Source: a virus (lineage: Duplodnaviria; Caudoviricetes). Taken from it: 64,000 nt of DNA. Every line of letters starts with the position of its first letter. The first letter of the stretch is position 1. The stretch covers positions 192,001 to 256,000 of the IMG/VR virus record IMGVR_UViG_3300027804_000038; one strand, 5' to 3'. Shown one piece after another: positions 3,606 to 41,771 of this stretch. The position numbers and the translations under genes were made by a program. The notes beneath the pieces were generated by a model, which saw only the letters and a program-made list of their open reading frames with translations, had not been told where the DNA came from and did no database searches.

Positions 3606-3628
3606 CTATTTATATAAAAAAATTAAAA

Positions 3629-4819
3629 ATGAGAAAAATTAATAATTTAGTAAATAAAATTTTATCTGAGTCTTTAACTAAAAAGGCTAGTGAAATTACT
3701 GAGAAAATAAAAAATAAGTTAAAATATAATGAGTTTGACTATGTTGCCGAAACTGAAATGAATGAAAAGTGGAAAGGTGATGTTGAGGTTGAAAAAACTG
3801 GAGAATATTCTGACATGAGTATTTCTGAAATTAACTCAGAAATTAAAAAATTAAAATCTAAAACTGAAAAGTATAAAGAAGAAGGTAAAAAAGTCCCAAC
3901 CTCAATGAAAGAAAAAATGAGTGAACTTTATTTTGCTAAAAGAGCTAAACAAGGATGGAAAGGAAAGGGTAAAGCGGTTGTTGATGAGGAAGAAATGGAA
4001 GAAGGAAATGCTTTTACAGGAGCACTTGCAAAGGCAAAAGAAATGGGAAAAGATACTTTTGAAGTTGGAGGTAAAGAGTTTAAAGTACAAAAAGAATCAA
4101 TTGTCTACCAAGTGGAAATTGATGGTGAATTAATTAATTTATCTGAAAATGAAATGGTGGATATGATTGAGGATATTGTTTTAGAAGAAAAAATTAAGTC
4201 TAATATAAGAGGTACTGGTAAAGCTAAGGGAACTGTTGAGTACGATAGAGTACATAAAAAAGACGAGGATATTAATGAAAAAGCAATAAATGATGTTGCT
4301 AAAAAAATGGAGGAATACGTTAAACCTGGGTCTAAATCCAAATTTGACATGAATCCTAAAACTTTCCCAAAAGGTAATGGTGAATTAGGAGAAATGTCTA
4401 AAAAGGCATACCAAGCCTCAGATGCCGTTGAAGAGTATATCACCAATTTTGCATATGCTCCAGGTATGGAAAATTTGAAAACAGATGAAATTGATTACAA
4501 TGACGAGTGGGTTACAAAAAATATTGAAGGTTCTGAACTAACAGGTAATTCTCCAAAATACGCAAATGCTGTCGATACTGGATTTGGTAAAAAGATAAAC
4601 AAAAAGAGAAAAGAAAATTGGTATCAAAAAGAGTTAGACCAAAGTTATAATAGAGTTACCCAACCAGTAGACAACGCTGGAGATTCAAAAAAAGACGGTA
4701 AGTTAAAAAATATGTTTAAAAAATTGAAAGAATCTGAAAATGAAGAAACTGAAAATATCTTAAACGAAGAAATGGTTAAAATGAAACATCTTTTAACTTA
4801 CAATAAAAAAACACAATAA
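3629..4819 (+). CDS. charged late protein, possibly head-internal or scaffold
   Basis: TATTTATA at 3607; leader ending ILSE; E/K-rich. Confidence 0.7.
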   Translation: MRKINNLVNKILSESLTKKASEITEKIKNKLKYNEFDYVAETEMNEKWKGDVEVEKTGEYSDMSISEINSEIKKLKSKTEKYKEEGKKVPTSMKEKMSELYFAKRAKQGWKGKGKAVVDEEEMEEGNAFTGALAKAKEMGKDTFEVGGKEFKVQKESIVYQVEIDGELINLSENEMVDMIEDIVLEEKIKSNIRGTGKAKGTVEYDRVHKKDEDINEKAINDVAKKMEEYVKPGSKSKFDMNPKTFPKGNGELGEMSKKAYQASDAVEEYITNFAYAPGMENLKTDEIDYNDEWVTKNIEGSELTGNSPKYANAVDTGFGKKINKKRKENWYQKELDQSYNRVTQPVDNAGDSKKDGKLKNMFKKLKESENEETENILNEEMVKMKHLLTYNKKTQ

Positions 4820-36870: not shown

Positions 36871-38733
36871 ATGGGAAAAATAATAGGTATTGACTTGGGA
36901 ACTACAAATTCTTGCGTAGCGGTTATGGAAGGTAGTGACCCTGTAGTAATTACAAACAGTGAAGGAAAAAGAACCACCCCTTCAATTGTCGCATTTGCTA
37001 ATGGTGGTGAAAGGAAAGTTGGTGACCCTGCTAAACGACAGTCGGTTACTAACCCTGATAAAACAGTGTATTCAATTAAAAGATTTATGGGAACTAGCTT
37101 TGAAGAAAGTAAAAAAGAAGCTGGCAGAGTCCCATACAAAATTATAAATGGTAACAATACACCTAAAGTTGAAATTGATAAAAGAAATTACTCACCACAA
37201 GAAATTTCGGCAATAGTACTCCAAAAGATGAAACAAACTGCTGAGGACTATCTTGGACAAGAAGTAACTGAGGCTGTAATTACGGTACCTGCATATTTTA
37301 ATGACGCTCAAAGACAAGCGACAAAAGAAGCTGGTGAGATTGCAGGACTTACAGTAAGAAGAATCATAAACGAACCAACTGCCGCGGCTCTTGCGTATGG
37401 TTTAGATAAGAAATCTAAAGATATGAAAGTTGTAGTATTTGACTGTGGTGGTGGTACTCATGATGTATCCGTACTTGAACTTGGAGACGGTGTATTTGAA
37501 GTACTCTCAACTGATGGAGACACTCATCTTGGTGGTGACGACTTTGACCAAGCAATTATTGATTGGTTAGTTATGGAATTTAAAGATGAAAATGGATTGG
37601 ATTTAAAACAAGACCCAATGGCACTTCAAAGACTTAGAGAAGGAGCTGAAAAGGCAAAAATTGAACTTTCATCATCACCGTCAACTGAAATTAATTTACC
37701 ATATATCATGCCAGTTGATGGAATACCAAAACATTTAGTACGTACTCTATCTCGAGCTAAATTTGAACAATTAGTTGACGAATTAGTTAAAAGAACAATT
37801 AAACCATGTGAGTCGGCTTTAAAAAATGCAGGACTTAAAGTTTCTGAAATTGATGAAATTATTTTAGTTGGAGGTACAACAAGAATTCCTGTTATTCAGG
37901 ATGCGGTTAAGAAGTTCTTTGGAAAAGAACCGTCAAAAGGGGTTAACCCTGATGAAGTAGTCGCTTTAGGGGCGGCTATCCAAGGAGGAGTTTTAGCTGG
38001 TGATGTTAAAGATGTGCTACTTTTAGATGTCACACCACTATCACTTGGTATTGAAACAATGGGTGGGGTTTTTACAAAGTTGATTGAGGCAAACACAACT
38101 ATCCCAACCAAAAAGTCACAAGTATTCTCAACCGCTGTAGATAATCAACCATCAGTTGAAATCCATGTATTACAGGGTGAAAGAGCTATGGCTAAAGACA
38201 ACAGAACCATTGGTCGTTTCCATCTTGACGGATTACCACCAGCAATGAGAGGTATTCCACAGATTGAGGTAACATTTGATATTGATGCTAACGGTATTAT
38301 TAATGTGTCGGCATTGGATAAAGGAACCAATAAACAACAAAATATTCGAATCGAATCTTCTTCAGGACTTTCAAAAGAAGAAATTGAAAAAATGAAAAAA
38401 GAGGCTGAAATGAATGCGGAATCTGATAAGAAAATTAAAGAAGAGACTGAAACAATTAACAAGGCAGATTCAGTAATTTTCCAAACCGAGAAGGCTTTAA
38501 AAGATTTAGAGGATAAAATTGGTGACGAAGATAAAAATAGAGTGATGGTTGCTTTGGAAGAATTAAAAACCGCACATCAGAATAGAGACGTAGAAAAGAT
38601 TAATTCTTCTATTGATAATGTTAATAACATCTTTCAAGGAATAAGTCAGAATATATATCAACAGATGTCAGACATTGTGAACGAAGATAAAGATGTTGAG
38701 GTAACCGATGTTGATTTTGAAGAAGTTAAGTAA
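36871..38733 (+). CDS. dnaK: DnaK/Hsp70
   Basis: [25 protein letters not shown]-like and NPDEVVA motifs; full length. Confidence 0.98.
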
Positions 38734-38790: not shown

Positions 38791-39360
38791 ATGAAGGTAA
38801 TATTTTTAGACCACGATGGGGTTATTTGCTTATCAAATAACTGGGGGTCACGATTTAAGAAACAAAAGAAATATAGAAAAAAATTGAGTCAATCAGTAAT
38901 GACAATGCCTCTTGATGCTCGTTTTGATAACTTTGATAAGAAAGCGATTAAGGTGTTAAATCAAATCTTGGAACAGACTGGTGCTGAAATCGTTGTTTCT
39001 TCCGATTGGAGGATTTGGTGTTCAGTTGAGGAAATGGGTGATTATTACGAAAGTCATGGAATTATCAAACGTCCAATTGATTTTACAGGTAATGTTATTG
39101 ATGAATCAAAAGTTACATGGCACCGAAATTGGGATTTGGAAGGAACAAGGAGTTTGGAAATCCAAGGTTGGTTAAAAGAACACCCTGAGGTAACACAATG
39201 GGTAGCTATTGATGATTTGAATATGGGTAAAAAAGGTCTACACTACTCAACGGAATTTGAACACGAATGGGGGTTAGATAATTTTGTACATACTCCTCTT
39301 AGAAATGAAGGTATAAAACAAGTTGGTATTAAAGAAAAAATTTTATCATTTTTAAAATAA
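38791..39360 (+). CDS. HAD-family phosphatase (Swiss-army-knife RNA-repair-like HAD)
   Basis: FLDHDGV, IVVSSDWR and WVAIDD motifs. Confidence 0.8.
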   Translation: MKVIFLDHDGVICLSNNWGSRFKKQKKYRKKLSQSVMTMPLDARFDNFDKKAIKVLNQILEQTGAEIVVSSDWRIWCSVEEMGDYYESHGIIKRPIDFTGNVIDESKVTWHRNWDLEGTRSLEIQGWLKEHPEVTQWVAIDDLNMGKKGLHYSTEFEHEWGLDNFVHTPLRNEGIKQVGIKEKILSFLK

Positions 39361-39433
39361 AAACTTAAAAATATTGACAAATAAATAAAATTTTAATACT
39401 TTTGTTAAACAGTTATATATTTAATTAAAAACA

Positions 39434-39547
39434 ATGAAACAGAACTCGATACATAACATAAGTAATCTCCCGATGAATGTGGGCCAAGCTTGGTTTGCGA
39501 TTAAAGGGCAAGATTGCCGTTGTTTAAGGGTTCTTAATGAGATGTAA
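39434..39547 (+). CDS. 37-aa leader peptide
   Basis: MKQNSIHNISNLPMNVGQAWFAIKGQDCRCLRVLNEM; follows TTGACA/TACTTTTG promoter. Confidence 0.6.
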   Translation: MKQNSIHNISNLPMNVGQAWFAIKGQDCRCLRVLNEM

Positions 39548-39609
39548 GCGTATCATCAAATATATAAAAAAAGAACCCTGAACAATTAAAAAGTTCGGGG
39601 TTTTTTTTT
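39527..39609 (+). terminator. attenuator (terminator with competing antiterminator)
   Basis: 10-bp stem 39574-39602 plus T9; AGGGTTCTT (39527-35) is perfectly complementary to AAGAACCCT (39571-79). Confidence 0.75.
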
Positions 39610-39623
39610 GATGTTACAAAACA

Positions 39624-39638
39624 GTTCTTTGACATATT
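39624..39638 (+). promoter_or_regulatory. boxA-like site
   Basis: GTTCTTTGACATATT just before first tRNA. Confidence 0.65.
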
Positions 39639-39647
39639 GGTGAATTT

Positions 39648-39689
39648 CGGGATGTAGCTCAGTTGGCTTAGAGTACGTGCTTTGGGAGC
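39648..39689 (+). pseudogene. 5' part of disrupted tRNA-Pro(TGG)
   Basis: CGGGATG acceptor strand, D arm, anticodon loop TTTGGGA, then break. Confidence 0.85.
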
Positions 39690-39730
39690 TCAAAACATGT
39701 TTTTTCGACTTTCATGATATTTATTATTAA

Positions 39731-40288
39731 ATGAATATTATGGAAATAACTAAATATGTTTTGATAGAAGTTGTAAACACTTCTAAAAGTAAATCAGAAA
39801 TACTTAAAAAGCTTGAATTGAGTGATAATGGTAGAAATAGAAATCATTTAAATAAATTAATTTCTGAATTTGGTGTTAGTTTAGATATTTTGAAAAAAAA
39901 TAAAAGAATTAATACTAAATTTATTGAAAAAGAATGCCCTGTTTGTGGTAAAATCTTTGAAACTAAAAAAACAGATAGAGAAAAAACAACTTGTTCTTAT
40001 AGTTGTTCGAACAGTTATTTTAGAAGCGGAGAAAATAATCCAAATTGGAAAGATGATAGTTACAGAACAACATGTTTTTTATATCATGAGAAGAAATGCG
40101 TAGTGTGTGGTGAAGATAAAATAATTGACGTTCATCATTATGATGAAAACAAAAAAAATAATAACAAAGAAAATTTAATTCCTCTTTGCCCAACTCATCA
40201 CATGTATTGGCACTCAAGATATAAAAATTTAATTGAAAAAACTGTTAACAACTATAGAGATGATTTCATTAAACGAGTAATGGGCTAA
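39731..40288 (+). mobile_element. HNH homing endonuclease inserted in tRNA-Pro
   Basis: CPVC/CSYSC zinc motif, CVVC...DVHH...NLIPLCPTHH. Confidence 0.85.
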
Positions 40289-40348
40289 TTGGTAAGCCGC
40301 CATATTTGGGATATGGACATCATGTGGGTTCGAGTCCCACTTATTCGA
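40274..40348 (+). tRNA. tRNA-Pro(TGG), intact, nested in the insertion
   Basis: full cloverleaf; overlaps the last 15 nt of the HNH ORF. Confidence 0.9.
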
Positions 40349-40349
40349 C

Positions 40350-40376
40350 ACGCAGGTTCGAGTCCTGTCATCCCGA
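40350..40376 (+). pseudogene. 3' part of disrupted tRNA-Pro
   Basis: T arm plus CATCCCG, complementary to 39648-39654. Confidence 0.85.
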
Positions 40377-40424
40377 CGATTAAAATTATTTTACATTTTA
40401 ATCAAAATTGAATATATTTGTACT

Positions 40425-40841
40425 ATGAAACATAGTATGGAAAATGGCGATAAGTCTAGAAATGGGAATCAATTAGAGTCCTATTTCATGGAAAAAACTG
40501 GATTAAAAAAAATTCAGAAGAAAGAAAAGCCTTTTTTTACTAATAGCCATGGTAAAAAACAAATTATTGATTTTGATTTTTATGTTAAAATTAATGATGA
40601 CGATGTTTACATTGATTTAACAACAACTTATAGAAGTGATAGGTTAAAACAAAAAGCATATAATGCTTTAATGTATAAATCAAAGATTAACAAACCTTGT
40701 AAATTTTATATGGGTGTTGGTAAATTAGTTGAACATGGAAAGAAAAAAAATCCTGTGTTAATTGAAGGTATTGATGGAGTATTAACAGTTGAGGATTTAG
40801 TACAAATGATTTCTAAAAGGTCAGATACTCAAGTGGTTTAA
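40425..40841 (+). CDS. PD-(D/E)xK-like endonuclease
   Basis: GNQLE...IIDFDFY...YIDLT; own promoter; overlaps tRNA-Cys. Confidence 0.55.
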   Translation: MKHSMENGDKSRNGNQLESYFMEKTGLKKIQKKEKPFFTNSHGKKQIIDFDFYVKINDDDVYIDLTTTYRSDRLKQKAYNALMYKSKINKPCKFYMGVGKLVEHGKKKNPVLIEGIDGVLTVEDLVQMISKRSDTQVV

Positions 40842-40892
40842 GGGGCCTGTCTGCAAAATAGGTATTCGTCGGTTCGAATCCGACTCTGACCT
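40819..40892 (+). tRNA. tRNA-Cys(GCA)
   Basis: cloverleaf, loop CTGCAAA. Confidence 0.9.
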
Positions 40893-40968
40893 CAAAAAAA
40901 AAATAAAAAATTTCTTTGAAATTAAAAAAATAGACGTATCTTTGTACTCACAAATAAACAATAAAAAT

Positions 40969-41718
40969 ATGATTACACTCCAAGAACTCCAATCAGTAGT
41001 ACCTTCAGTATTCAACACTCAAAAAGCTCAGAAGCTTTCTGACAAGTACACAGTTGTTCCAACCATTGACGTAGTAAATCAATTTATGCAAGCAGGGTGG
41101 GAAGTGTCAAGTGCAAAACAAGTAGGGTCAGGTGTATACGGCAAACACTCAGTTCGTCTCCGTAACTCTGAACTCCCAAAGGTAGGTGATTCTCTACTTG
41201 AGGCTATCATCACTAACTCTCACGATGGTCGTACCAAACTCCAAGTAGGAGCAGGGTTGTACCGATTGGTGTGTTCTAATGGTCTTGTAGTACCAATGCA
41301 AGAAATGGTTAACATTAACCAGCGTCACATGAACATTCAGATGGATGAAGTGAATCAAATCACAGAGAAGTTCATTCAGATATCACCAATCATTGAACGT
41401 TCAGTTAATAAAATGATTGACGTTAAAATGGATACTGAAAAGAAAATTGATTTTGTAACCAAGGCGGTTGGAATTCGTTGGAAAAATACCGAAGACATCT
41501 CAAGTATGACTCTTGAGACGATTATCGAACCTCTTCGTGGTGATGATAACAACGATACACTTTGGCATACTTTCAATGTAGTACAGGAGAAGTTGATTAG
41601 AGGTGGATTTGTAAAATCACAAGGTAAAAATGTGAGAACAGTCAAAGGGATTACTTCCCTAAATATGGACACAATGATTAATACAAAATTGTGGGAATTG
41701 GCTGAAACATACATTTAA
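40969..41718 (+). CDS. DUF932/DUF945 family protein
   Basis: SDKYTVVPT, NSHDG...AGLYRLVCSNGL, TLWHTFNVVQE, LWELAE. Confidence 0.85.
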   Translation: MITLQELQSVVPSVFNTQKAQKLSDKYTVVPTIDVVNQFMQAGWEVSSAKQVGSGVYGKHSVRLRNSELPKVGDSLLEAIITNSHDGRTKLQVGAGLYRLVCSNGLVVPMQEMVNINQRHMNIQMDEVNQITEKFIQISPIIERSVNKMIDVKMDTEKKIDFVTKAVGIRWKNTEDISSMTLETIIEPLRGDDNNDTLWHTFNVVQEKLIRGGFVKSQGKNVRTVKGITSLNMDTMINTKLWELAETYI

Positions 41719-41738
41719 TCTTTATGATTGATGTTTAC

Positions 41739-41767
41739 AAATGGTACCTCAAAAAGGTACCATTTTT
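41739..41767 (+). terminator. terminator-like hairpin inside the tRNA array
   Basis: AAATGGTACC/GGTACCATTT plus T run. Confidence 0.6.
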
Positions 41768-41771
41768 ATTT

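Follow-up and report, generated by a model that had tools for sequence, protein, structure and literature searches.

A probable homing-endonuclease cassette with its own tRNA-Pro, nested in a broken tRNA-Pro gene of a giant freshwater phage

How does a phage genome come to hold one tRNA-Pro gene in two pieces, with a nuclease gene and a second, complete tRNA-Pro gene between them? The locus in question lies at positions 39648-40376 of a 64,000-nucleotide (nt) stretch of DNA, referred to here as the window, which is part of IMG/VR virus record IMGVR_UViG_3300027804_000038. The record is 293,850 base pairs (bp) long, has 30% G+C and is rated complete; its source is a giant freshwater phage. All coordinates given without a locus name are those of the window, and the parts of the locus described below are all on its plus strand. 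We consider it probable that the 660-bp insert at 39690-40349 is a free-standing homing-endonuclease cassette, made up of a leader, an HNH gene and a tRNA-Pro(UGG) of foreign lineage, which was inserted into the resident tRNA-Pro(UGG), broke this target and supplied its replacement.

The insert is flanked by the two ends of one tRNA-Pro(UGG) gene. The 5' fragment (39648-39689, nt 1-40 of the tRNA) contains the acceptor strand CGGGATG, the D arm, the 5' strand of the anticodon stem CGTGC, the loop TTTGGGA, and GC, two nucleotides of the 3' strand of that stem. The 3' fragment (40350-40376) contains AC, the last one or two nucleotides of the variable loop, followed by the T arm GCAGG-TTCGAGT-CCTGT, the acceptor strand CATCCCG and A73. 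With a profile built from 76 phage tRNA-Pro genes, nhmmer matched the 5' fragment to profile positions 1-43 (E 1.7e-4) and the 3' fragment to positions 46-74 (E 8.2e-4), while ARAGORN reported neither fragment as a tRNA. In the sequence, both fragments have exactly the coordinates given for them in an earlier note on this DNA, which we call the original prediction.

Compared with intact alleles, the outer gene has lost 4-7 nt, namely the rest of the 3' strand of the anticodon stem and most of the variable loop. A search by pattern for uninterrupted alleles that share its acceptor stem, used solely to size this missing segment, returned many generic tRNA-Pro genes, the best among the matches listed being identical at 57 of 69 positions. 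The best explanation is an insertion at nt 40 to about nt 47, in the 3' strand of the anticodon stem and the variable loop, with the loss of these 4-7 nt. The original prediction held that rejoining the halves restores the acceptor and anticodon stems but leaves no variable loop. The acceptor does pair, with 39648-39654 complementary to the 3' acceptor strand at 7 of 7 positions, and the variable loop is indeed absent, but the anticodon stem is restored only for the join GC|ACG (39689/40350), which takes the first base of the T stem to close it and so leaves the T stem shortened. ARAGORN called no tRNA on the direct rejoin. Because of this, and because 4-7 nt are missing, the outer gene is, as far as its sequence tells, a pseudogene at the DNA level.

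Inside the insert are a 41-nt leader, an intact HNH open reading frame (ORF) and a complete but divergent tRNA-Pro(UGG). The inner tRNA-Pro (40274-40349; found by ARAGORN, and scoring 56.8 bits against the Rfam tRNA model) has C1-G72, A73, G35-G37 and a variable loop of 7 nt. Identity to the outer gene is about 60%, and ARAGORN found this tRNA to be the sole tRNA-Pro among the 25 tRNA genes of the genome. Its 5' end overlaps the HNH ORF by 15 nt, which are the last four HNH codons and the stop, and this stop, TAA, falls within the D loop of the tRNA. The HNH ORF, the complete divergent tRNA-Pro and their 15-nt overlap, all part of the original prediction, were confirmed by the ORF list, ARAGORN and Rfam. 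The resident tRNA-Pro is dead, and its function has been taken over by the tRNA-Pro of the cassette, the only one that the genome has.

We delimited the left end of the cassette (39690-39739) by alignment with four related loci (L008, L010, L021 and L041; L numbers denote the loci compared in this study). The leader can be aligned with theirs from TCAAA(A/T)CAT on, and there is no alignment to the left of that point. Ahead of the HNH start it carries the conserved motif TTTTTTCGAC-N9-GATATTTAT(T/A)AT(T/A)AAA, which is promoter-like in its sequence. We also considered this motif as a general promoter of the phage and rejected the idea on finding just two matches in 294 kilobases (kb).

The HNH ORF (39731-40288; 185 amino acids; identified from the ORF list, Pfam and PHROG) contains an ATG at 39740 that corresponds to the start used by its relatives and would give a protein of 182 amino acids. 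The N-terminal domain of the protein is helical; the protein also contains a CxxC...CxxxC zinc ribbon and, with its catalytic motif intact, an HNH core of the form CVVCG-x8-HH-x11-N-x4-CPTHH-x3-H, and it keeps every column that is invariant in a 37-member alignment. It matched PHROG 1271, 'HNH endonuclease', with an E-value of 1.9e-14, and Pfam HNH_2 at 21.2 bits, against a cut-off of 21. The AlphaFold (AF2) model has a pLDDT (predicted local distance difference test) of 88.8; its top fold matches in the PDB were the HNH domains of IscB, EcoKMcrA and Cap5, all of them weak and none reaching E 0.001, and a sequence profile search of the PDB also gave weak matches. A word-index search found 842 homologues, nearly all unnamed. 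Homologues are also carried by cultured phages, namely Xanthomonas phage XbC2, Serratia phage BF and Erwinia phages.

We examined where members of this family occur, using 80 of 204 IMG/VR loci and 80 of at least 448 metagenome loci. The tRNA nearest to the HNH gene was a tRNA-Pro in 58 of the 68 distinct IMG/VR loci and in 66 of the 72 distinct metagenome loci; among all tRNAs in the family loci, tRNA-Pro accounts for 14%. About 140 distinct loci thus show a large nuclease family that lives beside or inside the tRNA-Pro genes of phage tRNA arrays. Most frequently, a complete tRNA-Pro ends 40-100 nt ahead of the HNH ORF. Many further loci have an overlap of 7-33 nt between a tRNA-Pro and the ORF stop, and some loci show both layouts; the stop lies within the next tRNA in 36 of 69 family members. 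The HNH homologue of XbC2 (44% identity) stands directly after a tRNA-Pro. A further pair of loci differs by a clean exchange: a tRNA-Pro plus a small ORF in L212, which has no HNH gene, is replaced in L213 by a different tRNA-Pro plus the HNH gene, with the left boundary exactly at the 5' end of the tRNA. An HNH-superfamily protein with an intact motif and a sporadic presence among relatives, as in this pair, is what a free-standing homing endonuclease would look like.

The overlap is also seen with another nuclease. In Tenacibaculum phage Gundel_1 (L001 2512-3079), a different HNH protein (PHROG 6050) has the same 15-nt overlap with a tRNA-Pro that is 85% identical to the inner one, and it ends in KRVMD*, compared with KRVMG* in the window. 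We found no significant similarity between the two HNH proteins, and so two nuclease lineages share one junction with this type of tRNA.

The tRNA-Pro(UGG) genes of the family loci have unusual variable loops. Loops of at least 6 nt occur in 47% of them, as opposed to 9% of other class I tRNAs in the same loci; the inner tRNA of the window has a loop of 7 nt, and in others it reaches 25 nt. A long variable loop is possibly a correlate of the linked tRNA not being cut, as far as sequence comparison goes. An alternative cause would be host defences that act at the RNA level and cut tRNA loops; Septu, for one, is reported to cut the variable loop of tRNA-Tyr (PMC13096335). When we compared 'victim' with 'linked' tRNA-Pro alleles for a recognition sequence, no motif separated the two sets cleanly, since TCGCAGGTTC was found in linked alleles as well. 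In several arrays of the HNH family the tRNA-Pro(UGG) has a variable arm of 19-25 nt, class II-like and abnormal for tRNA-Pro (L010 1330-1420; L011 2301-2397; L021 1876-1971; L039 2075-2170; L064 2215-2310; L072 2874-2970).

One locus of the family has an insert of another kind. The tRNA-Pro(UGG) at L082 2131-2449 contains 242 nt between nt 38 and nt 39, whose removal gives a perfect cloverleaf (ARAGORN with introns). The insert is preceded by U and ends in G, has an internal GCCC that can pair with GGGU of the exon, and folds with a z-score of -5.45; Rfam gave no group I match for it. An HNH relative begins 40 nt downstream of this tRNA-Pro. We regard L082 as a candidate for an undescribed tRNA-Pro intron accompanied by a free-standing nuclease (collaborative homing).

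Relatives of the locus were fetched by means of the flanking HAD gene and orf138, the ORF on the other side. Their neighbouring HAD-domain protein is 80-88% identical to that of the window, and seven of them have the tRNA array Asn-Lys-Trp-(Thr)-Ile-Pro-Phe. At L221, L241, L242, L246, L248, L256 and L257 there is no HNH gene and the tRNA-Pro is intact. The intact tRNA-Pro of the relatives is identical to the outer 5' fragment at 40 of 42 positions and shares its unusual D loop (for example, in L221, L241 and L256); in the T stem there is a compensatory difference, with GCAGG/CCTGT in the window and GCTGG/CCAGT in the relatives. Contigs of a single lake sequencing run, X11, include both the split and the intact allele. 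Other close relatives have quite different tRNA-Pro alleles at the usual slot, which indicates that the tRNA-Pro gene is unusually changeable in this group of phages.

The nested arrangement also recurs elsewhere. In L078 a tRNA-Pro with complementary acceptor strands is split in the variable loop, at nt 44-45/46, and holds an HNH gene and an inner tRNA-Pro. In L077 and L087-L090 the split lies between TTTGGGA and GGTTCGAATCC, again around an HNH gene and an inner tRNA-Pro; L079 is split in the same way, with a 5' fragment and no 3' fragment, and 5' outer fragments alone were found at L021, L041/L361 and L370. All split junctions fall between nt 38 and nt 52 of tRNA-Pro. Over the last 110 residues, identity among the HNH proteins encoded by the window, L078 and L087 is 54-62%, and the N-termini are different. 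Since the nuclease lineages are this divergent, and since N-termini and junction positions differ, the sequences indicate at least three independent insertions into tRNA-Pro.

The cassettes of L077, L079 and L087 are 96-97% identical over 584 nt but are found in three contexts: identity falls to about 50% in the 200 nt upstream and to about 68-70% in the outer 5' fragments, and the similarity begins exactly at the anticodon loop. In this group the 5' strand of the T stem of the outer gene is gone. Such a comparison of sequences shows recent mobility, and indicates active spread, for this sister of the window's cassette. The 150 nt that follow the inner tRNA in the L077/L087 cassette are no more structured than shuffled sequence (z -0.19). 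For the window's own cassette, the one relative in another context is L008, its closest, with an HNH protein 79% identical at the amino acid level. In L008 a G+C-rich stretch of about 185 nt (3611-3796) separates the tRNA-Pro of the cassette from a tRNA-Phe; it had no Rfam match.

The near-identical strain L009 shows decay of the nuclease. Its HNH gene has an in-frame deletion of 54 nt between 11-nt direct repeats, by which the residues IPLCPTHHMYWHSRYKNL are lost; these 18 codons include the catalytic CPTHH motif, and the tRNA is retained.

Several points weigh against a homing cassette. The intact, HNH-free allele that the original prediction had proposed to look for in related phages does exist, but it stands at another slot of the array, between tRNA-Ile and tRNA-Phe, while the split gene comes first after the array leader. 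The locus has therefore also been rearranged, and the intact allele is a homologue rather than a strictly orthologous empty site; no genome with the same flanks and an uninterrupted gene was found among the relatives fetched through the HAD gene and orf138. The window's own cassette is known from one split context (the window and L009), and L008 is without clear flanking fragments. Splitting is also rare across the family, both fragments being present at none of the 72 distinct metagenome loci. A minority arrangement of this kind seems to be something that homing produces now and then, not a design that is fixed. Some tRNA-Pro genes adjacent to an HNH gene, such as those of XbC2 and L083, have ordinary variable loops of 5 nt, and loop length alone therefore cannot explain immunity. 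Finally, the target site of the HNH protein and the resistance of the inner tRNA-Pro are both points that we infer from sequence, with the clustering of the split junctions at nt 38-52 as the one piece of indirect support for cutting near the insertion point.

The first alternative to be weighed is a passive recombination scar, in which illegitimate recombination shuffles the tRNA arrays of these phages, the HNH gene and its tRNA-Pro landed in the resident tRNA-Pro by chance or at conserved motifs, and the HNH protein had no part in cutting. Such an origin would have to account for an association with tRNA-Pro genes (58 of 68 and 66 of 72 loci) that is hard to obtain by chance, for at least three independent nested insertions that all struck tRNA-Pro and all fell at nt 38-52, and for a near-identical cassette in three unrelated contexts, a sign of active spread. 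It does fit the rearrangement of the array, since a 2.1-kb block (39648-41770) is extra in the window compared with the relatives and Pro is absent from its usual slot. Moreover, other split loci have their junctions at TTTGGGA and GGTTCGAATCC, two motifs of universal conservation at which homeologous recombination would be resolved in any case. On balance we judge a passive scar unlikely.

We give far less weight to the idea that the outer fragments serve as a functional shell, folding like a tRNA around the insert so that RNase P, RNase Z or a phage Ro60/Y-RNA machinery processes or stabilizes the HNH mRNA and the inner tRNA. In the window the outer acceptor (7/7), D arm and T arm are intact, as a shell would need, but the same intactness fits a recent insertion equally well, with L009 being 100% identical there. 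Nor is the shell conserved: the 5' strand of the T stem is gone in L077, L079 and L087, L079 has no 3' fragment, and L021, L041 and L370 have a 5' piece only. We consider a functional shell very improbable.

A reading in which the 660 nt are removed like an intron, by self-splicing or by protein-assisted splicing and ligation, to make a functional outer tRNA-Pro is close to refuted, and we find it hardly credible. The structured 242-nt insert of the tRNA-Pro in L082, beside a family member and leaving a perfect tRNA on removal, and an RNA-repair-type protein encoded nearby (HAD_SAK_2 domain) speak in its favor. However, a search of Rfam at E-values up to 1 over 39000-41200 gave no match to Intron_gpI or any other ribozyme, the part of the insert that is neither ORF nor tRNA amounts to 41 nt, and, as described above, 4-7 nt of the tRNA are lost and the rejoined fragments are not recognized as a tRNA. 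In two RNA libraries, contigs run unspliced across the left junction (39657-39972) and across the right one (39907-40370), and none of the RNA-library contigs joins the 5' to the 3' outer fragment; as contigs in which DNA carry-over is possible, they are counted here as consistent with an unspliced insert rather than as proof of transcription, and the parts that they leave uncovered are uninformative. A ribozyme was also sought at E-values up to 1-10 in the window region and in L008, L021, L078, L082 and L087, and was rejected, the matches being tRNAs and chance hits.

The locus does not resemble other known kinds of tRNA gene insertion either. A group I intron would have a ribozyme core and its removal would restore a functional tRNA, and neither was found here. 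Against an integrase-type insertion, the HNH ORF is the sole substantial ORF of the insert and its sole family match (the further reading frames are few, short and overlapping, of 40-65 amino acids), and the sequence of the element does not complete the 5' fragment. In a split or permuted tRNA of the archaeal type the two pieces would hold the whole molecule, whereas part of the anticodon-stem 3' strand and variable-loop nucleotides are in neither fragment; no search was aimed at a bulge-helix-bulge. The view of the original prediction, that of an intron-less homing element in a tRNA-Pro that brings its own tRNA-Pro, is supported by the combination of no ribozyme, no rejoinable tRNA, HNH-free relatives, an inner tRNA that is the genome's sole tRNA-Pro, the link of the family to tRNA-Pro, and recurrence.

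An independent check on the junctions is their presence in other data. L009, from an unrelated ENA assembly of another sample, matches the window at 100% of positions over 1,061 nt, with the left junction inside this span, and at 99.6% beyond it, and has the same right junction. The stretch was found in at least 16 DNA sequencing runs from at least eight studies, in freshwater, estuary, lake and aquaculture samples, with 92-100% of the sampled words per run, and contigs of DNA runs X11 and X16, which belong to two further studies, span the two junctions with 100% identity. Assembly chimerism at the junctions, which the original prediction had named as a possible objection and for which nothing speaks beyond the general risk in repeats of tRNA-like sequence, is excluded by L009 and these independent DNA contigs, and its probability is negligible.

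If the insert is a homing cassette, its spread may be pictured as follows. In phages that have no such nuclease, the HNH protein would cut canonical tRNA-Pro genes at some point from the anticodon loop to the T stem, and the break would be repaired from a nuclease-bearing genome, with the donor module being copied. The usual result would be that a module of variant tRNA-Pro plus HNH replaces the resident tRNA-Pro as a whole. Where the tRNA is the only homology between donor and recipient, repair would instead resolve at short conserved matches and leave the cassette nested between the ends of its victim. Insertion would destroy the target, and the linked tRNA-Pro with its 7-nt variable loop would presumably stay uncut. 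Because the stop of the ORF lies inside the tRNA, processing of the tRNA by RNase P would sever the nuclease mRNA ahead of the stop codon, which may keep the level of nuclease low. After fixation the nuclease would decay, as it has in L009. The cassette, then, resembles a gene drive directed at a single tRNA gene.

A wider hypothesis, which we offer tentatively and hold to be possible though not probable, is that the HNH family forms 'break-and-replace' tRNA-gene drives. Its members would use TTTGGGA and GGTTCGAATCC of tRNA-Pro(UGG) as minimal portable homology arms, home into the tRNA-Pro of nearly every phage, inactivate it and leave that phage reliant on the tRNA of the cassette, with the stop overlap tying the two genes together and throttling the nuclease. 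An arms race at the DNA level, and not host defences that target RNA, would then drive the odd tRNA-Pro genes, with their variable loops of 7 to 25 nt and the intron-like insert at nt 38/39.

The surroundings of the locus show further features. The stretch just upstream of the split tRNA (39333-39647) contains a small ORF (39434-39547) and a strong terminator-like hairpin at about 39566-39609; Rfam leader and small RNA matches in the hairpin region were at chance level. This stretch is 78-83% identical to the one that directly precedes the first tRNA of the array (Asn) in the relatives, so that the gene now standing first behind the array leader is the split tRNA-Pro. Farther upstream are the HAD-domain gene (38791-39360), of the 'Swiss Army Knife' RNA-repair type (PF18143, HAD_SAK_2, E 1.4e-23), and a DnaK/Hsp70 homologue (36871-38733). 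Downstream, orf138 (40425-40841) has no Pfam or PHROG family match and its stop lies within a tRNA-Cys (40819-40893); the pair is kept in L212 and L213. Whether compared by features or by structure, the ESM-Atlas look-alikes of orf138 are proteins resembling PD-(D/E)XK restriction endonucleases, of the types MunI, ApaLI and MspI; we take this as a lead only. It is possible that orf138 and tRNA-Cys form a second nuclease-plus-tRNA module directly after that of HNH and tRNA-Pro.

The closest known system is SegB of phage T4, a free-standing homing endonuclease belonging to the GIY-YIG type in the T4 tRNA gene cluster (PMC2330249, PMC13096335). SegB recognizes the T-loop motif GGTTCRANTCC and cuts the tRNA-Asn of T2L, with neighbouring tRNA genes being co-converted, and maturation of the tRNA has been proposed to damage the nuclease mRNA at T4 segB/tRNA-Arg (PMC2330249). 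Both systems have a free-standing nuclease gene in a phage tRNA array and an ORF whose end meets the next tRNA. Unlike SegB, however, the nuclease described here is of the HNH type; SegB sits between tRNA genes and splits none of them, it is relaxed over many tRNAs where the HNH family is tied to tRNA-Pro(UGG), and no nested replacement tRNA is described for it. Phage T5 is reported, in work from 2004 cited in PMC2330249, to encode HNH-type site-specific nucleases within its tRNA region, and by that description shares with the window an HNH-type nuclease within a phage tRNA cluster; we know of no split tRNA or linked replacement tRNA for the T5 nucleases.

Collaborative, or trans, homing is known for F-CphI, which lies next to the psbA intron in cyanophage S-PM2, and for T4 MobE with the nrdB intron (PMC2790892). 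There, the target copy belonging to the free-standing nuclease's own genome is protected by an interruption, an arrangement that L082 resembles; the window differs in that its target is interrupted by the nuclease cassette, which is not spliced, and in that rescue comes from a second copy of the gene instead of from an intron. In 'fractured genes', homing endonuclease genes split protein genes that are rescued by split inteins (PMC2677866). These likewise have a free-standing nuclease gene between the pieces of the gene it broke, but the rescue is protein trans-splicing; the broken tRNA of the window, by contrast, is not restored, and the nuclease is accompanied by a replacement gene. Group I introns occur in the anticodon loops of bacterial tRNAs, some with nuclease ORFs, such as I-Ssp6803I in tRNA-fMet (PMC3984707). 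The window shares with them an insertion in the anticodon region and an associated homing endonuclease, and differs in having no ribozyme, imprecise junctions with lost nucleotides, and no splicing.

A search of full-text literature, with subscription journals outside its scope, gave no account of a cassette that combines nuclease and tRNA and is nested in a tRNA gene. The sequence evidence gives good support to the view that the finding is real and represents a new form in the biology of free-standing homing endonucleases. For the survival of such enzymes the accepted settings are self-splicing introns or inteins, or intergenic DNA, since landing in an essential gene would be costly. The locus points to a third route, in which the nuclease would land in its target gene, kill it and bring a replacement. 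It also gives a large unnamed HNH family a predicted target, the tRNA-Pro(UGG) genes, and exposes a trap for annotation, in that tRNA finders miss the half-genes of tRNAs around nuclease ORFs. For phage tRNA genes more generally, it offers an explanation at the DNA level for part of their turnover and odd structure, which are now discussed mainly as an escape from host defences that cleave tRNAs.

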